Shown: positions 17,816 through 44,799 of the stretch, piece after piece
Layout of the letters: the number at the start of each line of letters is the position of its first letter
How positions within the stretch are numbered: the stretch's first letter is position 1
Source: a virus
Taxonomy: Duplodnaviria > Caudoviricetes
Length of the DNA: 45,858 bases
IMG/VR virus record: IMGVR_UViG_3300015370_000002
Location: 1-45,858 of that record
Direction: 5' to 3' (one strand)
Position numbers and translations under genes: made by a program
The notes under the pieces: model-generated
What the model was told of the DNA's origin: nothing
What the model saw: the letters and a program-made list of their open reading frames with translations, nothing else
The model's database searches: none

Positions 17816-18313
17816 ATGGCAGATGCAAAACAGCCCAAAGAGGCAACAAGCAAAACAGCCGATTCAATCTTAGGCTCAAAAAGTCGCCTCAAATTTGAAT
17901 ACGTAAAGTTCGAGAATGTCGGCGATAATGTGATAGGTGTTTACGTAGGTAAATTCAAGTCACAATCCGCTAAATATGGCTATTGGCAGGAAAACTACAT
18001 ACTTTTAAGAGAAGCTGATGGAGAGAAAGTAGTAGTATCCGGAAGGAATAACCGCAAGTCAGACGGCGTGCGCGTAATCTATGGAACAGAAAAACTTCCA
18101 ATGGGTGCGCGAGTAGCCTTCATCTTTGATCGAGAAATGGATACCGGCAAAGGTAATCCAGCCAAGATCATAGAAATAGGATACGAAGGCCAAATAGATA
18201 AAGACGCTTATGAGAAATTCAAAACAATGTATAATCTAGATGACATTGAGGAAGCAGCTAGACCTGCTGAACCAACTGACGAGCTAGATTCAAGCATGGA
18301 AGAAGCCCTTTAA
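17816..18313 (+). CDS. Putative single-stranded DNA-binding protein (start re-called at MADAK, 165 aa)
   Basis: OB-fold-like beta pattern (KFENVGDNVIGVYVG...GNPAKII), acidic C-terminal tail; the longer TTG-start extension lies within a leader hairpin. Confidence 0.55.
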   Translation: MADAKQPKEATSKTADSILGSKSRLKFEYVKFENVGDNVIGVYVGKFKSQSAKYGYWQENYILLREADGEKVVVSGRNNRKSDGVRVIYGTEKLPMGARVAFIFDREMDTGKGNPAKIIEIGYEGQIDKDAYEKFKTMYNLDDIEEAARPAEPTDELDSSMEEAL

Positions 18314-18382
18314 TATAGTAGTGGACACTAAAAAACTTTAATAAAAGTGCGAGCATTTAAGTGTCCTAAAATAAAATAAAAG

Positions 18383-18654
18383 ATTAGTCTTTTTAAGCAA
18401 GAGAGGTGGACAGTGAGCCACTAATATAAAGATTGAGAGACTTCGTTCGGTGAGACCGCGTAACGATATAGCCTCACGAGATAGCGAGAGTTCCTCCCTT
18501 AATTGGCCGACTAAGTCGGTGTTACCCTGTGACCGCAGGATACGGTGGATGGAATGGAACCCCATTGATGAGGCAGAAGGTTAAAACAAGGCGTCGGTAC
18601 ACGCCTATCTCAATACTGCAAGTCAAACCTTGCCTCTTGCTTAAAAAGACTAAT
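18383..18654 (+). ncRNA. Candidate structured ncRNA, copy A (tRNA-like scaffold)
   Basis: Perfect 21-bp closing stem; shares GGACAGTGAGCC, GCCGACTAAGT and ACTGCAAGTCAAACCTTGCCT with 24909-25124. Confidence 0.75.
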
Positions 18655-18664
18655 AAGGAATAAT

Positions 18665-18856
18665 ATGAAAAGAAGAGTTAAAATATGTAAATGTGGTGGC
18701 ATGTTGACAGCTAAAAAGTTTATTGAGGTGGAAGAATGTGAAACCTATAAAGAATTTATAAGAAGAATAGAATTTGTTAAAGAAAATGTATTGTGGGTAC
18801 ATCAATGTAATAAATGTTTGTTAGATAAGATATATCAACAACCACAAAGTGAATAA
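18665..18856 (+). CDS. Small zinc-ribbon-like protein
   Basis: CKCGG...HQCNKC; AAGGA upstream of the start. Confidence 0.65.
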   Translation: MKRRVKICKCGGMLTAKKFIEVEECETYKEFIRRIEFVKENVLWVHQCNKCLLDKIYQQPQSE

Positions 18857-19079
18857 TATGGAAAGTATATTAAACAAGACAAACCACATAAGTAACCAAT
18901 ATGCCGATCTAGTAGAACAGGCTAGAGAATATATTGATGAGAGTGAATTTATAATGAATGTAATAGAATTTTATGATGAGAGAGGCTTTATAACAGAAAA
19001 ACAAGCAACCGGTTTAGAAAATTGGATAGATAGTATAGAACAAGAAGATTACTATCCTTATGATCCACTATGGGATTAA
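18849..19079 (+). CDS. Acidic hypothetical protein (likely start ATG 18858)
   Basis: ESEFIMNV..FYDERGFITEKQ motif. Confidence 0.65.
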   Translation: MNNMESILNKTNHISNQYADLVEQAREYIDESEFIMNVIEFYDERGFITEKQATGLENWIDSIEQEDYYPYDPLWD

Positions 19080-23366: not shown

Positions 23367-23411
23367 CCTCTTCTCCCAGCCCACTTATCTGGGTTGGATA
23401 GAGGAGGTAAA

Positions 23412-23510
23412 ATGTACCAAATAATCGCTGAATGGCTAAAGAAACTAGTGGGCATGGAGATGACAGAAGAAGACTGGGACATGTGGTTCAAGTCAAGAAG
23501 ATGGAAATAG
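23412..23510 (+). CDS. Trp-rich micropeptide (32 aa) with hairpin-occluded SD
   Basis: GAGGAGGTaaaATG; MYQIIAEWLKKLVGMEMTEEDWDMWFKSRRWK. Confidence 0.6.
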   Translation: MYQIIAEWLKKLVGMEMTEEDWDMWFKSRRWK

Positions 23511-23556
23511 GAGGATAGGCCTAGCAGTGCCTTTGAACTGCTTAATAATAAAATAT

Positions 23557-23645
23557 GGCAGTGGTAGCTCATTGGTAGAGCAAGAGGGCTTATAATCCTC
23601 CGCACTGCGTGAAATGTAGTAGGTTCGATTCCTACCTACTGCCCC
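23557..23645 (+). tRNA. Atypical tRNA, anticodon TAT (nominally Ile, reads AUA), long variable arm
   Basis: D arm GCTC-ATTGGTA-GAGC, anticodon arm GAGGG-CTTATAA-TCCTC, T arm GTAGG-TTCGATT-CCTAC, acceptor GGCAGTGG/CTACTGCC. Confidence 0.8.
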
Positions 23646-23668
23646 TAATTAATTAACTAATAAAATGT

Positions 23669-23773
23669 ATGGAGAAAGAGAATCAATTATTTGCTAGTAT
23701 TTTATCAAAAGTGTTTTGGGTAGCTTTATTGGGTTCACTTATAGCAAATATAATTGTACTGCTAACTAACTAA
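23669..23773 (+). CDS. Single-TM micropeptide (34 aa)
   Basis: MEKENQLFASILSKVFWVALLGSLIANIIVLLTN. Confidence 0.5.
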   Translation: MEKENQLFASILSKVFWVALLGSLIANIIVLLTN

Positions 23774-23784
23774 TTAATAAATAT

Positions 23785-24207
23785 ATGAAAAAAATACCTC
23801 TAACCCCAAAGAATCCAGACAATAAACACTTAAAAGCCTATTCTAAAGCAGTAGAAGAAGGTGGTAAATTGAATAAGAGTATGGAGAAAAAACTAACATT
23901 AACATTTGATTCCAACAAATTATTAAAAAACATTCTTGAAATTGACACCAGTGTACATGGTCAAATTAAAAGAAAAGTAGAAGAACGATTAGTTGATAAT
24001 TTAGTTAGTGATATAGAGGATGAATTTTTTGGTGATAAATGGAATGGTAAAAAAGAAATAGCTGATAGAGTTTTAGATGACCTTGGGGAAAAACAAGAAG
24101 AATTGGTAAAGAAAATATTAAGAAAGTTTTATGATAGCTATAAATATAAAAAAGCAGACCTAACTATTCTTAAAAAATTAAATGAATTTTTAGAAGATAA
24201 TGAATAA
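23785..24207 (+). CDS. Hypothetical protein
   Basis: 140-aa helical ORF. Confidence 0.65.
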   Translation: MKKIPLTPKNPDNKHLKAYSKAVEEGGKLNKSMEKKLTLTFDSNKLLKNILEIDTSVHGQIKRKVEERLVDNLVSDIEDEFFGDKWNGKKEIADRVLDDLGEKQEELVKKILRKFYDSYKYKKADLTILKKLNEFLEDNE

Positions 24208-24460
24208 TATGCTAAATAAACTAAAATCTATATTGCCTGAGAAAATAGGCAAAAACTATATTGACAAAGAAGCTAGGCATTTCGGACAAGGTTGGAACGA
24301 ATGTCTTAATAATACAGAAGCCCTAATACCAGATATGCTGGCTTTGATTAGAGAGGAGATTGAGGGAGAGAAAAGCAACTATCCATTCTGTGATGATACT
24401 GCTGATTGGCGTAGAGGATATACAGAAGCAATAGACGACATACTAAATATATTAAAATAA
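24200..24460 (+). CDS. Hypothetical protein
   Basis: GWNECL and GYTEAIDDIL motifs typical of small phage accessory proteins. Confidence 0.65.
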   Translation: MNNMLNKLKSILPEKIGKNYIDKEARHFGQGWNECLNNTEALIPDMLALIREEIEGEKSNYPFCDDTADWRRGYTEAIDDILNILK

Positions 24461-24707
24461 ATATGAAAGTTCATAAAATAGAAATGATTATCTGCGACCC
24501 AAACGGAGAATACGAAGATATTAAAGATGTTATTTGTGATATTGAAAATTATATAACTGAACCGATAATCCATATCGTAAAAACCCAAACAAAAGAAGCT
24601 GGTGAATGGAAAGACAATAGCCCCCTAAATTTTACCGCAAAGAGAGCTAATAATTACTTTGGAAAATTAGATAAATAAGACATACTAAATATATTAAAAT
24701 AAATATG
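24437..24707. repeat. 29-bp direct repeat flanking gene 24463..24678
   Basis: GACATACTAAATATATTAAAATAAATATG at 24437-24465 and 24679-24707. Confidence 0.9.
24463..24678 (+). CDS. Hypothetical protein
   Basis: MKVHKIEMIICD...GEWKDNSPLN. Confidence 0.7.
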   Translation: MKVHKIEMIICDPNGEYEDIKDVICDIENYITEPIIHIVKTQTKEAGEWKDNSPLNFTAKRANNYFGKLDK

Positions 24708-24908
24708 TGGAAAGAAGAATTTGATAAAACTAAATTAGCCACTCAAGGTGGTAGTTGTTGGGAATGTTGCGATTATGAAGATATGGTTTTAGAAATGGAG
24801 CAATTCATCTCCTCACTCTTAGAAAAACAAAAACAAGAATACGAAGACACAATAATGGAGATAGAAAAGATACACCAAGAAGAAATAATTAAATTATTGG
24901 ATAGATAG
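24705..24908 (+). CDS. Hypothetical protein
   Basis: MWKEEFD...EQFISSLLE, similar to the N-terminus of 16698 (MWREDL...EQFIEELLE). Confidence 0.65.
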   Translation: MWKEEFDKTKLATQGGSCWECCDYEDMVLEMEQFISSLLEKQKQEYEDTIMEIEKIHQEEIIKLLDR

Positions 24909-25124
24909 TTGTCTTTTCTTTGGGATAGTTGCGGACAGTGAGCCGTATTGGCTAAATTACAACTAAAGCCGACTAAGTACCCGATATTGAAATATTATAT
25001 CGGTTGTGTAGAGAAGTGAGTGAGAGGTAGTTGTAAAATCTCGACAGCTCTTACGATTTAATTAATCGTAGGAACCAACCCTACACTGCAAGTCAAACCT
25101 TGCCTATCCCAAAGAGGAGGACAA
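24909..25124 (+). ncRNA. Candidate structured ncRNA, copy B (tRNA-like scaffold)
   Basis: Closing stem TTGTCTTTTCTTTGGGATAG / CTATCCCAAAGAGGAGGACAA; same three conserved blocks as copy A. Confidence 0.75.
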
Positions 25125-25128
25125 TCAA

Positions 25129-25308
25129 ATGAAGCTAAGAATCAAAGAAAAGACTAGACAGATTCAAACCTGTCTACCCTGCGACCGCAAAATCTTTCAC
25201 AGAGTGTTCTGGTACTACAACGGTCCTACATTGCAGTACATCGAATACGTCTGTGACCGCTGTCATCACTGTACTAGACAGGATATCCACACAAGGAAAA
25301 GGAAATGA
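25129..25308 (+). CDS. Zinc-ribbon microprotein 1 (59 aa)
   Basis: Manual translation MKLRIKEKTRQIQTCLPCDRKIFH...YVCDRCHHC; SD GAGGAGG. Confidence 0.75.
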   Translation: MKLRIKEKTRQIQTCLPCDRKIFHRVFWYYNGPTLQYIEYVCDRCHHCTRQDIHTRKRK

Positions 25309-25490
25309 AACACAGATGTAATACCCTACTCGGTTGTGGTATCTGCCGAATTAGCACGACCCATAAAGTCTATGACGTGTTCAAGAAAGGTTTTCTTTAC
25401 AACGTCATCAGTATTTGCCAGACCTGTAACAATATGAGACTCACCTTCCCTGAAAGAAAACCGACTACTGAGGAGATGCAAATTGAGTAA
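25305..25490 (+). CDS. Zinc-ribbon microprotein 2 (61 aa)
   Basis: CGICRISTTH...ICQTC; ATGA overlap. Confidence 0.75.
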   Translation: MKHRCNTLLGCGICRISTTHKVYDVFKKGFLYNVISICQTCNNMRLTFPERKPTTEEMQIE

Positions 25491-25650
25491 GAGAAGAATC
25501 ACAGGAGTGTACGTTTTCTGTCAGGGCGAGTGTCGTACTCCACGAACGCATGACGTGTTCATGGAAGTGAAGTACAACAAAGTGCTTCTGACAATAAAAT
25601 GCACCAAATGTAACCATGAACGTGACTTCTACGAGGAGGAGAAAGATTGA
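25483..25650 (+). CDS. Zinc-ribbon microprotein 3 (55 aa, TTG start)
   Basis: Manual translation MSKRRITGVYVFCQGECRTPRTH...IKCTKC; SD GAGGAG. Confidence 0.7.
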   Translation: MSKRRITGVYVFCQGECRTPRTHDVFMEVKYNKVLLTIKCTKCNHERDFYEEEKD

Positions 25651-25901
25651 GGAGGTATTGTAATAGTTGCCATTCCGACCAGTTTCACTTCACCGACTAC
25701 ACCAACGGTCGGCCGACACGTAACGCTGCTGGTCGGATAAACGGTTTCATCGTGGACATCTTGTGTTCGACTTGCCGTTCAGTCAACAGCGAAATGAAGA
25801 TGAACAAGCGGGAGTGGAGCGAACTTATGAACGCTATCAGCCGACCCGACCTCATTCCTAAAGAATGGGGGTCGGTGTTGGGGGGTAGCTGTGTCAAGTA
25901 G
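25647..25901 (+). CDS. Zinc-ribbon microprotein 4 (84 aa, TTG start)
   Basis: CNSCHSDQFH...LCSTC; SD GAGGAGGAG; TTGA overlap. Confidence 0.75.
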   Translation: MRRYCNSCHSDQFHFTDYTNGRPTRNAAGRINGFIVDILCSTCRSVNSEMKMNKREWSELMNAISRPDLIPKEWGSVLGGSCVK

Positions 25902-26112
25902 AACTCTGTCGTGTCCCAACTGTGACTCAACAAAGGGCTTCCGTATGTTGCTGGTCAAGGCTGAACAAGCCAAGCTCGGTGCGTACGTCATCCCTGGTGT
26001 CTGCAAGAAGTGTGAGAACGTGAGAATGTTCATCGCATCGGCAGACAGTTACCTGAACATGTGCAACAGTGCACCACTCGGACAACAGGCAACGCTATTG
26101 CTGACGGATTAG
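25891..26112 (+). CDS. Zinc-ribbon microprotein 5 (73 aa, GTG start)
   Basis: CPNCDSTKGF...VCKKC. Confidence 0.7.
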   Translation: MSSRTLSCPNCDSTKGFRMLLVKAEQAKLGAYVIPGVCKKCENVRMFIASADSYLNMCNSAPLGQQATLLLTD

Positions 26113-26127
26113 CTTAACATACAGTTT

Positions 26128-26153
26128 CAGGGGTTCTGTATAAAAAATCCCTG
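26128..26153. terminator. Hairpin in the convergent gap between early and late transcription units
   Basis: CAGGGGTT...AATCCCTG; a second weak hairpin lies at 26220-26242. Confidence 0.4.
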
Positions 26154-26264
26154 CCTATATTAAAAAACATATGCTTACTTATGAAGATGCAATAAGAGAT
26201 TGTGTAATAGGTGGAATCCTAGGGGCGATTCTAGGAGCCCTATTCTTGATCAAGATTTTCCTGC

Positions 26265-29200
26265 CTATTTTGGAAGCTTCGGGAGCTTGGGTAATTTAGG
26301 AAGTTTAGTAGAAGGTTTTAGAGGTGGGCCATCTTTAAAATATTTTTGCCCGGTCTTAGAACCCCATTTACCTTTTAGTAAAGTTCTAACCTGCTCAGGG
26401 AGGCTATTTATTTTATATAATAATTTACCTTTTTTATCATAAACACCACCATTTAAAACAGTATATCCACCTGTTATAAGATTCTCAATTTGTTTAGCAA
26501 AGCCAAAGAACCCAGCAGTGGCCCACAGAGCTTTGTCAGTCTTACCTTGCGAAGCACTCATTATTATTTTGATTAAATTGCTAAGTATCGGTGATGGAGA
26601 ATAAGGTTGGCCGGTTTCAAAAGCAAACATAATAGAGCCAAGTAAAGGAAAATTACCAACTATGGATTTTATTATGTCCTTTGATATTTCTTCCGGGTCA
26701 TCTTCAAAATACAGTTTATTAATTAACTGTTCTATATATCCAGCCACCACTAACGCTACTAGAGCCTTTGCTAGTAGCTTCTTTTTACTCCCGGCCAATG
26801 GTGGGAGTTTTTCGTTCTTCCAGATATCAGTAACATAGAATTGCATTTTAGAGTTTAACTGAGAAAAGAACGTGTTAACTGCCTTTGCTAGCTCAGTCCT
26901 GAAATATTTTGGCTTCTCAGCTTGTGCCATGGACCCCATGATAGCGTCAACAATATCGTCAGACTCTCTATCAATACGCTTAAATTCTTTGGCTGTTATT
27001 TTTAACCCTTGTTTCCTAGCTCTAATAATCATCTGATCCATCAGAGCGATTTTAGTTATTTTAGCTGTCAACCTATCAGTGTATTCAGCTGGCTTTCTGA
27101 CCCATTTCATAACTGTGCCTCTCAAGTCTTCAATCTCATAACCCAAGGCTCTTTGTTGTACAGACCCAGATAATGATGCGTGTCTAGCGATCGGTGAATT
27201 GGTAGACACCTTAATGCCTGCCTTTGCTATACCTTTAAAAGATGTAAGTACCCAGACATCCACTACGTTCAAGAACTGCTTTAATATAACTGTATATTTA
27301 AGAGAAAGAACACCAAAAGCATTTAATGTTCTTAAAAGCCTAATTCCTTTCATGATCCCCTCCGGCCTGGCAGGACTAACTATATGAGCATACCACTCGC
27401 GGATTTTCTTGTGCGCGTCCTTGCCGGTTATCTCTTGGAACTCAATACTGTCAATCAGATATTTAACTGGCAACGTCCTACTACCTACATCAATGAAGCG
27501 GGATACTCCGTTTACCCACAACTCCATTACTTTGCGATAATCTTTTTCATATAGATCAAGTGGTACATCAACCTCACGTTCTTTAATAGAGCCGAAGAAT
27601 GGGTCTTTGCGTACAAAATCAAAACCACCTTGATCAATCAATTCAATATCGCTACGAGTATAAAGAGGCGTATAATTTTTAATCTCACCAACCTCACGGC
27701 CGTTCTTTAATGCCACTTGTTTTACTTCTGGGTACAGTTCTTTAACGGTGTCTCTGATTTCATTATAAGCCCGGCGTACTTTAGGGGATAGGTCAGCTGA
27801 TGGAGCAGTAATTTTTTTATCTTGCTTAGAAGCAGTAAAAGCCCAGAGCTGTTCTGCCTCTGCTTTTTTTAATTTAAATACTGTGGGTATTTTATTTTTA
27901 ATAATAGCCTTCTCGCGGATAGCCGCTAATCTCTCACCAGCAATGATAGGGTCAAACAACAAGTTCTTAAATCCCTCGCCAATTCTCATGAAGAACCTAC
28001 CACCTGTTTCGTATCCCTGCACTATGTCGCCAGCCTGTTTTTTAACAAAGCCAAAGCTGAAAGTCTTCATCCATTTCTTATTAACCTTAGGAATCTTGCT
28101 TGTTCTTTCTATATAGGACAAAGCGTCTTTTGATATCATAGCAGACACTTCACCGTTAGGCTCAACCTTGACTTTGACCAAGTCTTTAAAATATTTATCC
28201 TCGATCCGTAGCATTTTGATAGTGTCCTCCGGTACTCCGTGCTCTTTTAATCTATCATAAGTCTTCTTAGTATAACCACCACGGCGAATTTGTTGGGCCA
28301 GGAATTCAAGGTCTGCCCAGATTTCTTTTGCTTTCTTATTATAAGAAGTAGCAAAGAACTCATCTACAAGTGGAGTAGTTTCAGGAGATGACATTAAAGA
28401 TGTAGGAGTCATACCCTCTTTGTATACCTGGAAGGTCTCATTAGGCACTTCTTTTAATATGCGCTTGATATAACTATTTTCAACATCATTAGTAAGAACT
28501 ATTCTTGAACCACTTTTAACATTATCAAAAGCTTTTTGATGTTCAGTAACAAAGTTATCAGCATTACCGAAGTGAGATTGCAGAAAGTCTTTAGATGCCT
28601 GATCGCCTTTGTACGTTTGGGAAGATAGAATGTAGGGTGGATCAAGATAAAAACCAGTTTTAGCAGGGTCCTCGATAGATATTCTATTGATAAAGTCCCA
28701 ACCATTCTCACCACCACGACCAATATCAACCAATACTCCGTTCTCTTTTGCCACCTTAAAGCTGGCATCTATGTCATTAAATCCATTGAACATACCATAT
28801 TTTCCAAAAACTCTGTCCTCAAACGATTGGAATCCAATCTGTTTAGAGATCAACTCATTACCACGCATTGACACCTTGTCGATATATGCTTTATCAGCAG
28901 CACTGGCAATATCAGAAACCTCCGTCTTGTCCATCTCTTTAACAGCTTTGTCAAAAATAGGTTTAAACTTGGCATAATCTTCCTTAAACACAGTAACCTC
29001 TTTGCCAAGATCAATCTTGCGAACATAATTCTTCCAAGCATTTGAGCCAATAAAGCTATCAGGATGTTTAGTTAAGAAGGTATTAAACACGTCATAAACA
29101 TACTTGTCTTCAGACTGAGCGATCATAAGTATTGAATTGGTAAGACTCTGAGCTGAAGATTTAACAGCATTCTTAACTTCTTCTAGTTTGCCATTTTGTA

Positions 29201-32200
29201 TTGCTTTTATTAGGGTGTGTTTTTCAATATCATAAACATTAGCATAATAGCGTTTCAATCCATTGCGCATAGCACCTTGAATAGAATGAGCTCCAAGTGT
29301 AAATGCACCAGCATAAGGCTCAACTATTGTGTCTACACCGTTATTAGTCCAGCGGTTAAAGATAGAGCTAAACAAAGGAACGGTTGTGTCCTTGTTGCCA
29401 AGCAATTGAAAGGCTCGAGCATTAAGTGAGCGAGGTGGTCGAAAGTAAGGAGTAGCCATTTTCTTAAGTTCAGGATCAAGTTTACTAATACCATTGTCAA
29501 TCTTAGCAACCTCTGACTTAGTAGGTGGCTTGCCCGTTAATCCTGCTTCTTTGGCGGTTTTAACACCTAAAACAAGTTCAGGGCGCTCGGATAGCAATCT
29601 GTCCTTAAACTCCTCAAATACCTCATGATCAGCCATTGATTCAGAGTGGAATATGTCAGAATCAGTATCATATAAATTATGCTTTTTAACAATTTTTTTG
29701 AATGTGTCTACATCTCCACCATCAATCTTCTCTCTTAACCCAAGAAAACCAGGAGTACCTTTTAGCTTTTCGTATACATCAACAAATTGTGAGTAGTTAT
29801 CTTCCATGTTTGATGTGTACTCTTTGCCCTCAAAGCCTATGTCTTCAAGTATCTGTTTCTGTAAATCTTTGGGGTATTCTTTCTTCTTAGCAACTTCTCG
29901 TTCTGCTATTTCAATAGGTATTTTTTTAATACCAAGCTCATCATAAGCGGCCAGCCGGTGATGTCCATTCTGTACCTCATAATATGTACCACTCTTGTCT
30001 TTCAGCTCTATAACAAGTATTGGTGGGATTTTTTCACCGTCATATATTTTATTTTTATATTTATCTATAGTTAGTCCCGCCTCAGTACCTCGCAACTCTC
30101 TCAATCTTCCAACTTCATGCTCCCAAGGAACAACTTTGTCAGCATCAACAACTTTCTGTACTCTGGATGGTTTTTTAACAACTCCAACTTCCGCTCTATC
30201 CATAGCGACAAGTTTGGCTTCTTCATACTTCATGCCGAGTTTGCGCTCCTTGGCTAATTTGTTCTTATAGATAGCCTTCTGTGCAGGGGTGAGTTTCTCA
30301 AATCTATCTTCAAATGATTGTTTTCTAATAGCTGGTTGTTTACCGGTTCTAACAAAGGCACCCTTGCCTACCTTCTTAGTTTTACCACTCAAGAAAGCCT
30401 CATAAGCATTAAGCACGGTAGTACGTTTACCCGCCAACCTGCGCAACGTGGTGATCAAGCTCTGCAAGAATTTATGTATTTTACCTGTGAAAGTTTTATT
30501 GCCGGTGGCATAGCCCTCGACATTAAGCGCCAACCATTCCTCTGGCCCAAGCCTCTTTTTACCATATTTACCACCGAGTTCATCTCCATGAGTCTTAGCC
30601 ACCTCCGCGTACAAAGCCTTGCGCTCTGTGGCAGTTAAATATGTTTGTACGTAGTGATGAAAAGCCTCATGAAACAAAGTCTCAGATGATACTTTGCCAC
30701 CATCTATCAAAACAGTAATTAATTCATTGGCGTAAGTCCCATATACATCCTTGTCAAAATCCATCTTGCCACCTGTCGTAAATCTTAGGTCTTTATCGTT
30801 AGGAAATAACTTCTTAAGTATTACTTTCGCCTCCGCTGGTGTGATGTCTAGCTCTGATAGTTTTTCTTTAATTTGAAATGCCTCAACCGCTCCTTTATGT
30901 TCAGGCTTAATATCAACCTCATACCACTCAACTCCCTGCTCATCGGTGATCCGTTGAGCTCCGTACTTTAATTTAAGATATTTACTAAGAGTAGTTTCAT
31001 AGAATTTGTATATAGGATTTGATTTGTCTACTTTACCAGAGATGTCGAATTGTTCATTGTTCATCTCATAAATCTGTTCTATTTTTTCGGTGAACTTACC
31101 TGCTTTCAAATCTTTTATATCTCCACTATCAAATAAATTCTTAGGAGAAGCCTTAAACTTACCATCTTCTAGAACTTCTGTGATTATCCAACTAGGCTGT
31201 GTGGATTGTGCTATTTCTTGACCAACTTTTAATGTGTCAATTGTTAACTTTGAATCTTCATACCCTAGCCCAGCATACTTACCATTTTTCATCCTGAGCC
31301 ACATTTGTGTGCTACCTAGCCCCTCAACTTTCATAGCAGTTTCACCAACTGGGAATTGTAGTTTCTCTATGCCATCTTTTGCAGCTTTTGCAACTTCTTT
31401 ACGAACCATATAGAAGTGAGCAGTGGGATTGTCGTATTGGGAGAGTTTGTCTATAGATGTTTCAGCCTCAGACCCAGGGATAGTACCCTCCACAAAGGAT
31501 TCATCCTTTGATAATTTTACCACTCTTAATTGATAGGGAGTCATATCACCATGATCTGGTCTGATTGTAATAATTTTACCTTTTTTAATTTCTGATATAG
31601 GAGTATCTGTTAGCTTCGTTGAAGCACCTTGTAGTTGTGTAACTCCGCTTTCCAAACCACCTTTCTGAAATAAATCACTTTGTGCCTCAATGACACGCCT
31701 AGTTTTATTGTCTGCCATATCTTCAAAACGAATATGACCAAAGTAATTTGGAAATTCTTCTGCTCCAAAATGTTTATCTCCTGCCTGTGTTTTTATAGGT
31801 GACTCATAAATAGCTTCACCATAAGTAATAACATCGCCACGAATACTATCATTTAAAACTATATGCTCATAGCCCACCTCACGACCAGTTCCTGTTTGTA
31901 CTTTGCCCTTTAATGGCAATAAATTAACCTTAACACTTTCAGCGAATTCTTTAGCACTTATCTTCTTGCCCTCTGGCATAGTTTCAAGTGTCTCTAAAAT
32001 AACCTTTCTTTCAGGCTTCTTAATGTCGGCACGTTTTGTTAAATCAGAAATAAATTGTTTAGACACCATTGTCTTGCCTTCCAATTCTTTTAGTATTTTA
32101 GTAGTTAAAACACCAGTTTCTTTGTAGACAGGGATTGGTGGAGCAGGCACTTTCTTAAAAGGAATTTTTTCTCTACCGGCTGATATATAGGAAGCTACTC

Positions 32201-34109
32201 TGTGATGTCCATCTTCAACATCTACAAACTTTCCATCTTCTTTAATCAATATTGGGTCAAGCTCATTATTTTTATCTTTCAATAAATGGTTGATATCTTT
32301 ATCCATTTTGTCTTTTGTTTTTTCATCAGACTTTCTATAAATATCTTTCCATCCATCCACCTCCATCCCATTATTAAATTCTGGGATTGTTAACTTTTTA
32401 ATATCAATATAATCTTCCTTCTCTTCCTTCTCAGGTTTAACATCAAGTACATCGTTAACATCTTGGATGCTAAGACCAACAGGCAACTTACCATCTTTCT
32501 TGGCTTGTATGGCCTGTTGTGCGATCTGCGCCATAGCACCACCGAGCAGACCAAGAGTGGCACCACCAAATGCTGACATTATTAATCTGTCTTTTTTCTC
32601 ATTTGGATTTATCTCCCTAAATGTTTGTTCTGTTATAATATCTAATTCTTCTTGTAAAACTTCCGTAACCATTTCTTCCCCGGACATCAAAACTAGTGTC
32701 AGTATTTTATTAACAATAGAACTGGACACCTTATTTACTATTGTCTTGCCAAGTTGTGCTGGAACAATGCGCTCTAGAGCAATGTTTGGAATAGCATTGA
32801 ACAATCCTAATGTTTCTGCTTCATCTTCTGGAACACCATATTTCATTGCCTTTTCTTTTATGCTTTCAGCCTGTTCGCCAACCAATAAAGTCATACCGGC
32901 GGGGTGAATAAAGAAAGGTAGCTTGCCAAGAGTCTCAGCCCCCATATTAAATATAGTCTCTCCCGGGTACTTTGTTATTTTATCTTTGACGCTCGCAGTC
33001 TCCCACACCTCGCTATTCTGCATATAGGCAGAGTCATCCAGCTGATCAACAGCTTCTTTCATCTTCTGGAAAGGTATAATTCCTTTTTGTTCAGCAAATG
33101 TATATGCGTCTTTCCAGTCTGATTTTACCGCATTATACTTGTCTATTCTCTCCGGGGTTAAATCATATTGTAGCGTAGTGTCTTTAGACGGTCCCTCTGT
33201 GACCTCTCTTGCCGGTACATCCAGCGTACTCACCTCAGCAACGACAGCGGTTGTCTTATTAAAAATAAAATCAGAGAAGTAATTAAGCCCCTCGGTGATA
33301 GCATTAATCGCAGAAGTGCCTACTCTTTTTCTAAACTTAGAGCGCGCTTCTTTGTCTTCTTCTATCCTAGAGAAATCAAGTTTACCGTCTTTTACCGTAG
33401 GAATAATTGATGGAAATATCTTTGGAACATCACGAATAACACTCTTAGCGAAAGTTTTAACTGTAGATTCTTCTTTCCTAGCTTCCTGTTGAGCCACCGC
33501 AAAAAGAGAAGGTGCAGTAGACACCGGCTCTTCCACTTTCTCATCTTGAAACAAACTACTAAAAAAACTCTTAGCTTTACCAAGAGCAGTAACCGGGCTT
33601 TTAACTAGTTCTTTTGCGTATGTTTTATAAAACTCCTCTGGTTGGTTATTCCAATTAAGAACACGCTGTCGTGCCTCATTTAATCCTATAGCACCAGACT
33701 TGTAGTCTTCAATAGCTTTCCATTCAACAAGCATTTTACCCTCTTGTCTATTTTTAGCAGAAGCAGGTTTGTTAGAAATTCTTTCTAATATTGTTTTTTT
33801 ACTTTTCAATCTCTGCATGTTTGGATCATTCGAAGTACCGCCTAATGCAACCGGAATAATATGGTCACGTTCTGAACCGGCTTCTGTTTCTAACGAACCG
33901 TAACCACGTGGAGTAGTAGTAAGAGACGGCGCTCCAAGACTATCAAACATGCTTAAGAACTGACCACCCGATGGGAGTGTTTTAACTTGTGGTTGTTCTG
34001 CTTTCTTTACTTGTGGTTCAACATCTGGCGTAGGCTCGTCAAACAAGCCAGAAAAATCTATGCCAGTGGTTGACTTCTTGGTGGAGGTTGAGAATAATCC
34101 TTCAAACAT
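26265..34109 (-). CDS. Large polyvalent (probably virion-ejected) protein: HNH-like, two ParB-like, zincin metallopeptidase and N6-adenine methyltransferase domains
   Basis: ERDHIIPVALGG...N; VEDGHHR and VQNGHHRL; LFHEAFHH...EEWLA; VEPYAGA and YLDPPY; located at the end of the tail/ejection module. Confidence 0.85.
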   Translation of the reverse strand: MFEGLFSTSTKKSTTGIDFSGLFDEPTPDVEPQVKKAEQPQVKTLPSGGQFLSMFDSLGAPSLTTTPRGYGSLETEAGSERDHIIPVALGGTSNDPNMQRLKSKKTILERISNKPASAKNRQEGKMLVEWKAIEDYKSGAIGLNEARQRVLNWNNQPEEFYKTYAKELVKSPVTALGKAKSFFSSLFQDEKVEEPVSTAPSLFAVAQQEARKEESTVKTFAKSVIRDVPKIFPSIIPTVKDGKLDFSRIEEDKEARSKFRKRVGTSAINAITEGLNYFSDFIFNKTTAVVAEVSTLDVPAREVTEGPSKDTTLQYDLTPERIDKYNAVKSDWKDAYTFAEQKGIIPFQKMKEAVDQLDDSAYMQNSEVWETASVKDKITKYPGETIFNMGAETLGKLPFFIHPAGMTLLVGEQAESIKEKAMKYGVPEDEAETLGLFNAIPNIALERIVPAQLGKTIVNKVSSSIVNKILTLVLMSGEEMVTEVLQEELDIITEQTFREINPNEKKDRLIMSAFGGATLGLLGGAMAQIAQQAIQAKKDGKLPVGLSIQDVNDVLDVKPEKEEKEDYIDIKKLTIPEFNNGMEVDGWKDIYRKSDEKTKDKMDKDINHLLKDKNNELDPILIKEDGKFVDVEDGHHRVASYISAGREKIPFKKVPAPPIPVYKETGVLTTKILKELEGKTMVSKQFISDLTKRADIKKPERKVILETLETMPEGKKISAKEFAESVKVNLLPLKGKVQTGTGREVGYEHIVLNDSIRGDVITYGEAIYESPIKTQAGDKHFGAEEFPNYFGHIRFEDMADNKTRRVIEAQSDLFQKGGLESGVTQLQGASTKLTDTPISEIKKGKIITIRPDHGDMTPYQLRVVKLSKDESFVEGTIPGSEAETSIDKLSQYDNPTAHFYMVRKEVAKAAKDGIEKLQFPVGETAMKVEGLGSTQMWLRMKNGKYAGLGYEDSKLTIDTLKVGQEIAQSTQPSWIITEVLEDGKFKASPKNLFDSGDIKDLKAGKFTEKIEQIYEMNNEQFDISGKVDKSNPIYKFYETTLSKYLKLKYGAQRITDEQGVEWYEVDIKPEHKGAVEAFQIKEKLSELDITPAEAKVILKKLFPNDKDLRFTTGGKMDFDKDVYGTYANELITVLIDGGKVSSETLFHEAFHHYVQTYLTATERKALYAEVAKTHGDELGGKYGKKRLGPEEWLALNVEGYATGNKTFTGKIHKFLQSLITTLRRLAGKRTTVLNAYEAFLSGKTKKVGKGAFVRTGKQPAIRKQSFEDRFEKLTPAQKAIYKNKLAKERKLGMKYEEAKLVAMDRAEVGVVKKPSRVQKVVDADKVVPWEHEVGRLRELRGTEAGLTIDKYKNKIYDGEKIPPILVIELKDKSGTYYEVQNGHHRLAAYDELGIKKIPIEIAEREVAKKKEYPKDLQKQILEDIGFEGKEYTSNMEDNYSQFVDVYEKLKGTPGFLGLREKIDGGDVDTFKKIVKKHNLYDTDSDIFHSESMADHEVFEEFKDRLLSERPELVLGVKTAKEAGLTGKPPTKSEVAKIDNGISKLDPELKKMATPYFRPPRSLNARAFQLLGNKDTTVPLFSSIFNRWTNNGVDTIVEPYAGAFTLGAHSIQGAMRNGLKRYYANVYDIEKHTLIKAIQNGKLEEVKNAVKSSAQSLTNSILMIAQSEDKYVYDVFNTFLTKHPDSFIGSNAWKNYVRKIDLGKEVTVFKEDYAKFKPIFDKAVKEMDKTEVSDIASAADKAYIDKVSMRGNELISKQIGFQSFEDRVFGKYGMFNGFNDIDASFKVAKENGVLVDIGRGGENGWDFINRISIEDPAKTGFYLDPPYILSSQTYKGDQASKDFLQSHFGNADNFVTEHQKAFDNVKSGSRIVLTNDVENSYIKRILKEVPNETFQVYKEGMTPTSLMSSPETTPLVDEFFATSYNKKAKEIWADLEFLAQQIRRGGYTKKTYDRLKEHGVPEDTIKMLRIEDKYFKDLVKVKVEPNGEVSAMISKDALSYIERTSKIPKVNKKWMKTFSFGFVKKQAGDIVQGYETGGRFFMRIGEGFKNLLFDPIIAGERLAAIREKAIIKNKIPTVFKLKKAEAEQLWAFTASKQDKKITAPSADLSPKVRRAYNEIRDTVKELYPEVKQVALKNGREVGEIKNYTPLYTRSDIELIDQGGFDFVRKDPFFGSIKEREVDVPLDLYEKDYRKVMELWVNGVSRFIDVGSRTLPVKYLIDSIEFQEITGKDAHKKIREWYAHIVSPARPEGIMKGIRLLRTLNAFGVLSLKYTVILKQFLNVVDVWVLTSFKGIAKAGIKVSTNSPIARHASLSGSVQQRALGYEIEDLRGTVMKWVRKPAEYTDRLTAKITKIALMDQMIIRARKQGLKITAKEFKRIDRESDDIVDAIMGSMAQAEKPKYFRTELAKAVNTFFSQLNSKMQFYVTDIWKNEKLPPLAGSKKKLLAKALVALVVAGYIEQLINKLYFEDDPEEISKDIIKSIVGNFPLLGSIMFAFETGQPYSPSPILSNLIKIIMSASQGKTDKALWATAGFFGFAKQIENLITGGYTVLNGGVYDKKGKLLYKINSLPEQVRTLLKGKWGSKTGQKYFKDGPPLKPSTKLPKLPKLPKLPK

Positions 34110-42376: not shown

Positions 42377-42940
42377 TTAATCATCAATACGTTTAAGATA
42401 CATTTGAACTGCTACGGGAGAAGCATGACCTACATTGCCATCATATTGCGAAGTAAGAGCATCGACTTTCATCTGCAATATTAACCAGTCATTAGCTGCT
42501 AAATCTACGACAAATGTATTAGCGATATTAAATCCCCAACCACCACCAGCTGCTTGCACAACTTGGCTACCCATAGCTGCTGTACTACTATTTACTACCA
42601 CTTGTGCAAAATGTGTATGAGGGTCTGTGTCTGCTATTCCATTAATTGAATAAGACACTTCATATTTACCTGCTATATCTACATATACATGGCTTGGATT
42701 AGTTGAAGTGCTGTGAGTAATATTATTTAATTCAACTTGACCACCTGTAAAATCAACATCTATATAACTTGTAGAGATACCAGTTACCTCTGCAATCCTA
42801 TATACCATCCCGTAGGCTGGTATTTGTGTTTTGGATGTAGCTCTCAAATATTGCCCACCAAAGATATGGTCAGCTAAAGATACTAATCCGCCAATGCTTA
42901 CTAAGGCTACTAGCCCGTATAATGCTATTTTTTTAATCAT
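42377..42940 (-). CDS. C1q/BclA-C-like domain protein with signal peptide, paralog 3
   Basis: NITHSTSTN...VDIAGKYEVSY...VVDLAANDWLIL. Confidence 0.75.
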   Translation of the reverse strand: MIKKIALYGLVALVSIGGLVSLADHIFGGQYLRATSKTQIPAYGMVYRIAEVTGISTSYIDVDFTGGQVELNNITHSTSTNPSHVYVDIAGKYEVSYSINGIADTDPHTHFAQVVVNSSTAAMGSQVVQAAGGGWGFNIANTFVVDLAANDWLILQMKVDALTSQYDGNVGHASPVAVQMYLKRIDD

Positions 42941-42944
42941 ATTT

Positions 42945-43517
42945 TTAATCATCTATACGTTTAATAACTATTTGTGCTGCCACTGGAGTATCTAAATTGG
43001 CTTCACCATCCCAGTCAGAAGCAGCTGCATTATCCGTTCTTCCTTGTAAAGTAAAGTAGTCATTAGCATTTAATTCCACTATAACAGTGTCTTCTAATAC
43101 AAAAGCATAACTAGCACCAGTTGATAATACTGTCCCACTACCTAATATTTCAGTACTATTATTTACTAATAACCTTGCATAAGTAGTGTGAACATTACTA
43201 TTGCAGAAACCATTTACCATGTATGATATTTCATATAACCCGTCTTGGTCTACTGTTATTTGCGCAGGATTTGTTGATGTGCTATGGGTAATACCTTGCG
43301 ATACCACACTTCCACCAGTAAATTCTGTGTCAGTCCATCCAGCATTAGTGAAACCAGCTTGCTCATCTAAACGATATATCATGGCGTAAACAGGAATTTG
43401 TGTCTTTGAAGTAAATCCTACCATCCTAGATTTGCCAAAGATGTGATCAGCTAAGGATATTAATCCACCTATACTTACTAGGGCTATTGCTCCGTATAAT
43501 ACTATTTTTTTAATCAT
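42945..43517 (-). CDS. C1q/BclA-C-like domain protein with signal peptide, paralog 2
   Basis: GITHSTSTN...ITVDQDGLYEISY...IVELNANDYFTL. Confidence 0.75.
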   Translation of the reverse strand: MIKKIVLYGAIALVSIGGLISLADHIFGKSRMVGFTSKTQIPVYAMIYRLDEQAGFTNAGWTDTEFTGGSVVSQGITHSTSTNPAQITVDQDGLYEISYMVNGFCNSNVHTTYARLLVNNSTEILGSGTVLSTGASYAFVLEDTVIVELNANDYFTLQGRTDNAAASDWDGEANLDTPVAAQIVIKRIDD

Positions 43518-43521
43518 ATTT

Positions 43522-44076
43522 TTAATCGTCTATTCTTACTATACTAAATGTCCCTGAATAATCAGGAGTAAAATCACTAGCAAAATCTTCTGTTACTATA
43601 TTGCCACCACTACCTGCGCACAATAATTCTACTGTATCACTAGCACTTAACCTAACAATAAAGCTGTGAGCAATGTCAGCAGCAAAGCCTGCCGTCAAAG
43701 TATGGGCAATAAAACCATCTTGCACCATAGTCCCATTTACTTCTACTTTACAAAAAGAATTTCTAATATTTGCAGAGAATAATCTCATGTGATAATTAAT
43801 CTGATATAAGCCACTTAAATCAACGGTTAATGTCCCGTTATTTGTACTTGTGCTGTGTGTTATGTTTAATAATTCTACTTGTGAATCCCATGTGCTAGTG
43901 CTATATGCAGTAGTAAAAGTTTGGTCATCTGTCTTATACACATGTGCATAAGCTGATATTTGTGTCTTTGAAGTAAAACCTAACATCCCACCACCAAAAA
44001 TACTACTACCTAATGAAAGTAAACCACCAATGGATATACACGTTATTCCTATGTAGATTAGTATTTTTTTAATCAT
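43522..44076 (-). CDS. C1q/BclA-C-like domain protein with signal peptide, paralog 1
   Basis: NITHSTSTN...LTVDLSGLYQINY...IVRLSASDTVEL. Confidence 0.75.
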   Translation of the reverse strand: MIKKILIYIGITCISIGGLLSLGSSIFGGGMLGFTSKTQISAYAHVYKTDDQTFTTAYSTSTWDSQVELLNITHSTSTNNGTLTVDLSGLYQINYHMRLFSANIRNSFCKVEVNGTMVQDGFIAHTLTAGFAADIAHSFIVRLSASDTVELLCAGSGGNIVTEDFASDFTPDYSGTFSIVRIDD

Positions 44077-44085
44077 ATTATTTTA

Positions 44086-44799
44086 TTACATACATGAGTC
44101 AGTTGAAGCTGTTAATACTCCGTCTAGTACGGTGATGTAAGTTATACCAGCACCGTCAGTATCTTGCATTGGTATACAACCAGGTTGGCTAGTATCGCCA
44201 ATAGCGAATGTCGATGTACCAGAACCACTTACAAAACTAAGCATACCAGACCCTGTTGAACCTAAATTACAATCTACATTGGCATCAGTACCAGCACATG
44301 TAATATTTGGTCCAGTCCCAGTATCACCACTAGATATTTCTAAATAATTAACAGAATTATCAACTGGTGTGAATTTTAACATTGTGTTTACATTTCCTAG
44401 TGAATCCTCTGAACGAATTTCTTGATTGCCTACACCTGCACCACCTAGAAAGTCTAGCCTTCCATCATAATTCATTCCAAACAAATCACCGAAAGCATCA
44501 GCGATCACAAAACTTTTAGAAGAACTACTAATTACATCTGACCTAACAAAGAAAATTTCATCGAATGGAGTATTTGGATTATCTGCATCGTATGAACCAC
44601 CTCTGAAATAAAGCGAACCAGAGTCTACACCGATGGTGGAGCTATTAACAGCAGTTTTATAATTAGAGCTGATTGTAAACGATTCAGCTCCTCCAGCAGT
44701 ATCTGAAAGGCTGGTAATATAAGTAGCTTTTACTTGCAACCCTACCACAACACATGCGGTTATAACTATGGCTGCAAATATACCCAAGTATTTTTTCAT
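44086..44799 (-). CDS. Fibre/spike-like protein with signal peptide
   Basis: MKKYLGIFAAIVITACVVVGLQVKA; VNYLEI...GTDANVDCNLGSTGSG beta repeat; C-terminal GCIPMQDTDGAG. Confidence 0.6.
   Translation of the reverse strand: MKKYLGIFAAIVITACVVVGLQVKATYITSLSDTAGGAESFTISSNYKTAVNSSTIGVDSGSLYFRGGSYDADNPNTPFDEIFFVRSDVISSSSKSFVIADAFGDLFGMNYDGRLDFLGGAGVGNQEIRSEDSLGNVNTMLKFTPVDNSVNYLEISSGDTGTGPNITCAGTDANVDCNLGSTGSGMLSFVSGSGTSTFAIGDTSQPGCIPMQDTDGAGITYITVLDGVLTASTDSCM

Follow-up and report, generated by a model that had tools for sequence, protein, structure and literature searches.

Five overlapping ORFs for predicted zinc-ribbon proteins behind a structured leader RNA in a complete phage genome

The five ORFs and their reality as genes

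Five overlapping ORFs, each with two Cys pairs, follow a structured leader RNA near the middle of a 45,858-bp phage record. This record, the whole of which was analysed and is called the window here, is a complete viral genome with 109-bp direct terminal repeats. Its PHROG matches include a large terminase (E 9e-101), a connector protein, a primase and a helicase. Replication and early/middle genes occupy the + strand from about 13.8 to 26.1 kb, and the - strand carries the structural genes together with a giant protein of 2614 aa (26265-34109), which converges on the early/middle genes and thus on the cassette. Elsewhere in the structural arm, three diverged direct repeats of ~99 nt each, spaced by ~570 nt (42858-44092, - strand), coincide with the starts of three tandem genes of ~190 aa, which look like a paralog triplet. 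Public sequencing runs that contain the genome stretch are labelled as groundwater metagenome, and there were no RNA runs among those listed.

One related phage contig, L074, was found by a helicase search (65% identity in the helicase). A metagenome scan for relatives returned only L074, its fragments and one helicase at 39% identity. No relatives were obtained with the C-terminus of the giant protein or with helicase alignment patterns, which were poor patterns, and blastn against the phage record collection gave no match to the genome. L074 matches 7 of the 27 + strand proteins as well as the giant protein, the counterpart of which has at least 2112 aa and shows patchy similarity only (32-37% over ~80 aa).

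The leader, RNA B (24909..25128, + strand), consists of a closing stem P1, a 5' hairpin, a variable middle and a 3' hairpin. Directly behind it on the same strand lies ORF1 (25129..25308; 59 aa, ATG start, pI 9.8), with the Cys pairs CLPC and CDRC and a His six residues past the first pair. It is followed by ORF2 (25305..25490; 61 aa, ATG; CGIC and CQTC), which shares an ATGA overlap with it, by ORF3 (25483..25650; 55 aa, TTG; CQGEC and CTKC), by ORF4 (25647..25901; 84 aa, TTG; CNSC and CSTC, then a 40-residue tail) and by ORF5 (25891..26112; 73 aa, GTG; CPNC and CKKC, then a 30-residue tail). Successive ORFs overlap by 4, 8, 4 and 11 nt. When the five were aligned, the four Cys columns were invariant and the two pairs stood in register, about 20-30 residues apart; the sixth residue past the first pair is His in ORF1-4, and in ORF5 Phe replaces it. 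The earlier note on this DNA had described five overlapping ORFs of 55-84 aa with these motifs and a His at this distance in four of them; all five were found where it had placed them, and its count of His residues is correct.

It is barely credible that the five ORFs are untranslated chance products of a GC-rich structured RNA region. The block does lie directly 3' of a structured RNA, and the same region holds five antisense ORFs of 50-84 aa, but none of these antisense ORFs has the Cys4 pattern. By contrast, C-x2-3-C...C-x2-C is present in all five + strand ORFs of at least 50 aa in the block, a register that was never reproduced in 5000 dinucleotide-preserving shuffles of the block (33 contained one ORF with the pattern, none contained more). 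Across the 45.9-kb genome no other small ORF fits the pattern. SD sites before four of the five starts, a protein homologue of ORF2 at 58% identity and a synonymous bias in ORF2 also speak against a chance origin.

This bias emerged from a second version of 25303-25484 that occurs at similar depth in contigs of the runs X3, X4 and X5 and carries 14 differences. Among the eight of these 14 that are listed, five fall at third positions of ORF2 codons and are synonymous, among them changes in the codons for the conserved residues His20 and Cys41. Read in either of the two remaining sense frames, 0-1 of the changes would be synonymous, and some would create stops. The three antisense frames give 0, 1 and 5 synonymous changes among the eight listed; the third positions of the frame scoring 5 coincide with those of ORF2, and by coordinate arithmetic this frame differs from that of the 58-aa antisense ORF. 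Because the co-occurring variant differs mostly at synonymous third positions, ORF2 is regarded as a real gene, and these eight listed of 14 differences show, for ORF2 only and at the level of sequence, that purifying selection acts on it. Where ORF3 starts with TTG and MSKRRI in the window, the variant genome shows an SD, ATG and MSKREI, which supports the TTG start of ORF3. ORF1, ORF4 and ORF5 may be taken as putative genes on the grounds of Cys register, SD sites and coupling.

Composition, translation starts and the equivalent site in L074

The GC content is 0.42-0.50 at 25001-26000, compared with 0.30-0.31 at 24001-25000. This rise reflects a difference at third codon positions, where the GC content (GC3) of ORF1 to ORF5 is 0.53, 0.50, 0.52, 0.66 and 0.62, whereas the 48 other genes range from 0.17 to 0.48. 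An SD of at least 5 nt precedes four of the five cassette ORFs (5-6 nt) as opposed to 2 of the 48 other genes, and the remaining cassette ORF has a G run in its place. Even at 4 nt or more, an SD is found before only 4 of the 48 non-cassette genes, so that the genome is nearly without SD sites. Its non-cassette genes start in AT-rich contexts such as TATATTAAAATAAATATG, and AT-rich start contexts are known for hosts whose ribosomes ignore the SD. The earlier note had singled out the block for a higher GC content than its neighbours, for TTG/GTG starts and for SD motifs unlike most of the genome, and in this the GC, GC3 and SD counts agree with it.

Native start contexts also mark the edges of the block. 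On the left, the ORFs at 24463 and 24705 both start behind the native context, which is repeated exactly there over 29 nt; on the right, a 42-aa hydrophobic ORF (26171..26299, + strand) starts in a close version of the native context, TATATTAAAA..ATATG. Since these contexts flank the block, RNA B and the cassette lie between two native-looking genes.

In L074, tblastn matched none of the five cassette proteins, nor the 63-aa ORF behind the second RNA copy described below. The same site in L074, likewise just before a convergent giant gene, is occupied by a separate series of small, Cys-rich ORFs, comprising one of 49 aa with CKTCRDFKLHEV, one of 48 aa and one of 56 aa, together with an 87-aa ORF of native composition. 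Two ORFs of this array have 6-nt SDs and a GC3 of 0.49-0.56 (other L074 genes: 0.21-0.47), and the local GC content of L074 is raised at the array site. The arrays of the two phages thus have the kind of gene, the odd composition and the position in common, and their sequences are non-homologous. As kind, composition and position are shared without shared sequence, we read the position as a swap site for cassettes. The contig with the ORF2 variant has flanks unrelated to those of the window, and an exact search of viral contigs with the variant's 30-letter flank gave no match.

It is likely that the cassette was swapped in from other phages. The horizontal acquisition proposed in the earlier note is supported by the foreign GC3 and SD use, the native-type intergenic flanks, the different array in L074 and the unrelated flanks of the ORF2 variant. 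Raised GC3 and SD use in the arrays of both phages could also be the mark of a special translation regime rather than of foreign origin.

Predicted fold, relatives and possible roles of the proteins

The five proteins are all basic (pI 8.4-9.8). Searches of Pfam, PHROGs and NCBIfam gave no hit that exceeded a curated cut-off, and a collection of 15 billion proteins contains no exact copy of any of the five sequences. A profile of seven Cys4 sequences was run with HMMER against 1.84 billion representatives and gave five hits at E <=0.001. The protein P0004 (62 aa) is the one that is 58% identical to ORF2 (hhalign probability 99.6%); it retains His20 of ORF2, the Cys residues and the stretches HKVYDVFK, LYNVI and NMRLTFP. 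Two long HNH/Stc1 multi-ribbon proteins, P0002 and P0003, were considered as kin and rejected as generic ribbon similarity; their scores (E 8e-5 and 3e-4) are sums over 4-6 repeats. No homologues of ORF4 or ORF5 were found with a word index and none of ORF4 in viral contigs, and alignment patterns of ORF2 and P0004 had no match in viral contigs. For ORF1 and ORF4, the clusters retrieved from the ESM Atlas were either unnamed or, if named, had a score of 0.91-0.92.

An AlphaFold2 model of ORF1, computed from the seven-sequence alignment, has a mean pLDDT of 82.6 and four strands (residues 4-15, 20-31, 34-42 and 48-52), with Cys 15/18 and Cys 42/45 placed in two turns. The five proteins are accordingly predicted to be zinc ribbons, the fold being that of the ORF1 model only. 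Foldseek gave no match of this model to the PDB at E <=0.001. Its top ranks were taken by eL42/L44e (E 0.8-1.3, probability 0.95-0.97, TMq 0.57-0.59), followed, also at non-significant scores, by ribbons of the Rpb9/TFIIS type and by Elf1. When the profile was compared with PDB sequences, L44e again ranked first (E 0.13, 15.4 bits) through C-x2-C-x5-H-x-V, a motif that L44e shares with the cassette profile. These two weak pointers to eL42/L44e are treated as a lead and not as family membership. The earlier note had likened the proteins to L33-like ribosomal ribbons and had proposed Foldseek on predicted structures as a check; on the ORF1 model, ribbon folds were indeed ranked at the top, and a faint echo of the ribosomal resemblance stands in that eL42/L44e came first by profile and by fold, but neither match is significant (E 0.13 and 0.8).

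Like the ORF1 model, eL42/L44e and the ribbons of Rpb9, TFIIS and Elf1 have two CxxC knuckles joined by long beta-hairpins. Unlike eL42, Rpb9 and TFIIS, the cassette proteins are free-standing, phage-encoded, fivefold and tandem, and they have no Pfam ribosomal or TFIIS match. BFVD contains numerous uncharacterised proteins from phages (e.g. Cellulophaga phage phi19:3 and uncultured Caudovirales) that resemble the cassette proteins in size (41-90 aa) and in the same predicted zinc-ribbon fold (TMq 0.5-0.6), but none of these matches is significant (best E 0.28) and none of the proteins has a known function.

One reading of the eL42 lead is that the proteins are ribosome-directed ribbons of the eL42/bL33 kind that alter host translation, the strong SDs of the cassette marking it for a special class of ribosomes in a host that does not otherwise heed the SD. 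The first rank of eL42/L44e in both the PDB-sequence profile search and the Foldseek search would fit, as would the presence of any SD in only 4 of the 48 other genes, and viruses reportedly encode ribosomal proteins, bL33 included. A precedent for the SD argument exists in Bacteroidia, the ribosomes of which, as indicated in PMC9976891, ignore the SD unless they are without bS21, although Bacteroidia may not be the host here. However, neither eL42 match is significant, there is no Pfam ribosomal family at E <=1, and zinc ribbons this small generally resemble each other. We consider a role on the ribosome decidedly unlikely.

Sequence similarity among the five proteins themselves is slight. 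ORF2 and ORF3 are 34% identical over 44 aa (hhalign probability 33%), and the other nine pairs have hhalign probabilities below 10%. Features common to the alignment are an N-terminal M-[KRS]-x-R, the position of the His and a hydrophobic strand before the second Cys pair. Of the paralog array proposed in the earlier note, the shared architecture holds, but measurable sequence similarity is confined to ORF2-ORF3 and does not extend to the other pairs. As only this pair is detectably similar, paralogy of the five is inferred from their shared build.

Five different, similarly built proteins, two of which (ORF4 and ORF5) carry extra tails, could also be the subunits of one heteromeric complex, kept at fixed ratios by translational coupling, and the stop/start overlaps along the entire block would suit such an arrangement. 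Yet phage operons commonly contain coupled small genes, L074 has three to four genes of this type instead of five and none of them is orthologous, and the ORF2 variant has different neighbours. We consider a single complex unlikely.

The leader RNA, its family and the proposed explanation

The 5' hairpin of RNA B has the form GG-ACAGUGAG-CC, and its 3' hairpin, GCAAG-UCAAAC-CUUGC, abuts P1. The predicted fold is unusually stable (z -5.85; 0 of 200 shuffles as stable), and a covariance model, R1, matches 24911-25119 with 66.3 bits (E 1.6e-14). In the minimum-energy fold 24908-24928 pairs with 25106-25126, and the SD of ORF1, GAGGAGG (25113..25119, + strand), lies inside the 3' strand of P1.

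A second copy of the same family, RNA A, is located at 18383..18654 (+ strand). It has a 21-bp perfect closing stem and a fold z of -5.38, and R1 recognises it in two partial hits of 29.7 and 25.2 bits. Directly 3' of it lies a 63-aa CxC...CxxC ORF (18665..18856, + strand), which is native in composition, i.e. AT-rich with a GC3 of 0.19. RNA A, this Cys-rich ORF and an acidic ORF of 76 aa (pI 4.1) together make up the 757 nt of 18313-19070. The genes flanking this segment are 110 nt apart in L074 (5792-5903), so that either the window has gained this segment by insertion or L074 has lost it by deletion.

The 16-mer of the 3' hairpin is present in 71 viral stretches, and 46 of 73 matches to it are accompanied by the 5' hairpin motif, which yields 42 distinct viral sequences. 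When 31 sequences of the family were aligned, compensatory changes were seen at 25 of the 31 predicted pairs, mostly in the long closing stem. This stem has a median of 28 pairs, and the middle varies from ~35 to 230 nt (loci L003-L073 and the window). No Rfam family matched at or near its gathering score over the window RNA or seven other loci. By its sequence covariation, this is a widespread, strongly covarying RNA family without an Rfam entry. A literature search on such tandem arrays or the leader RNA found nothing, and the words zinc, cysteine, tandem and paralog are absent from the review PMC11323111. Over ten thousand candidate viral RNAs are catalogued in PMC10690425; four leader-RNA motif strings are absent from six of its supplement files, and three others may list the RNA.

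Three viral loci have the RNA within same-strand tRNA arrays (L039 1382-1540, L066 1402-1540, L018 1377-1540), which suggests that it is stable and processed. Near the RNA of L066 there is also a weak match to YrlA (Y RNA-like) of 36.6 bits, below the gathering score. The window has a single tRNA-Ile (anticodon TAT, long variable region; 49.2 bits) at 23558-23645, 1.3 kb upstream of RNA B. A 17-mer was found in 48 stretches of genome contigs, with nine strong full-length hits (>=54 bits), four of them on contigs binned as Patescibacteria. Strong full-length copies on contigs binned as Patescibacteria/CPR were recorded in L100, L083 (two copies), L112 and L122. The host range of the RNA, and possibly that of the phage, may include Patescibacteria/CPR. 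In 15 of 35 loci, no more than 15 nt separate the stem end from the start of the next ORF, so that the family often occupies a leader position.

The earlier note had suggested that the proteins bind the RNA upstream, and had proposed searching other phages for joint occurrence of arrays and RNA. In its fullest form, this would be a phage ribonucleoprotein in which RNA B is bound by the five proteins and RNA A by the 63-aa protein. Both RNA copies of the genome directly precede microgenes of the Cys4 or Cys3 type, the proteins are basic, and their fold class is often RNA-binding, with eL42 and Rpb9/TFIIS ranked at the top. In viral loci, the first small gene downstream of the RNA is of the Cys4 type in 4 of 16 cases, against 11 of 198 other small ORFs, a weak enrichment obtained with naive gene calls (Fisher p 0.017). 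These Cys4 neighbours are, however, of other sequence types than the cassette, and such a neighbour comes first in none of the nine strong genome-contig copies. The array of L074 has no RNA copy (best R1 score 14.1 bits, E 0.25), and a nearly identical variant RNA from the same community, with the same stem and hairpins, a 58-nt middle and other flanks, is not followed by ORF1. Varied genes lie downstream of the 42 distinct viral copies, and in three loci the RNA is embedded in tRNA arrays. The search thus showed a family that is widespread without such genes, and the suggested binding finds no support in co-occurrence. By sequence, the link between RNA B and the cassette is positional and not specific, and we regard the ribonucleoprotein as improbable.

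The position of the ORF1 SD in P1 recalls known phage regulators. Mu Com and P2 Ogr/P4 Delta are phage proteins of the Cys4 type, small and basic, which activate either translation or late transcription, and the site of action of Com is an RNA stem in which a ribosome-binding site is hidden. If the cassette proteins were gene regulators of this kind, their size, Cys4 pattern and basic charge would be as expected, as would their place at the end of the early/middle operon, facing the structural genes, and the adjacent stem that occludes a ribosome-binding site, as with Com and mom. In the cassette, however, unlike the case of Com, the hidden ribosome-binding site is its own, and there is no sequence match; Pfam gave no Com or Ogr_Delta hit at E <=1, and five divergent copies are unexpected for a single regulator. 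A regulatory role of this type seems quite improbable. Still more remote is the combination of leader and cassette into a module that reprogrammes translation: a stable RNA of the tRNA-array type would be excised, the SD freed and ribbons of the eL42/bL33 kind made, which in a host that ignores the SD would dock on ribosomes or RNA and favour phage messages. We judge this joint proposal very unlikely.

The explanation that we favour, if tentatively, is that of an accessory cassette which came from another phage lineage and the zinc-ribbon products of which bind, during takeover, to nucleic acids or proteins of the host or the phage. The five genes would be co-transcribed with the early/middle operon, and the five ORFs would be translated as a coupled chain from ORF1. 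We infer the co-transcription and a gate on ORF1 translation because + strand terminator-like sites are absent from 23400-26500 and because the stem covers the ORF1 SD. With the SD buried in the closing stem of ~20 bp, expression would need this stem to be opened or cut, and opening might occur by cleavage, e.g. by RNase III. Just ahead of the convergent giant gene there would be a hot spot at which phages exchange fast-evolving microgenes, similar in this to arms-race loci devoted to host takeover or counter-defence. On this favoured explanation, the cassette proteins would be binders that evolve fast, with nucleic acids or proteins of host or phage as their targets.

Few unexplained genes are as common in phage genomes as small zinc-ribbon genes. 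Here, five such genes are joined in one coupled unit within a clean, complete genome, and the unit bears foreign marks both in its codon composition and in its mode of translation start. The leader RNA is probably a more novel object than the cassette. The unit lends itself to testing two questions. One is whether arrays of this kind are exchangeable kits for host takeover or counter-defence; the other is whether genes led by an SD, in a phage that is otherwise SD-less, are read by a special route.
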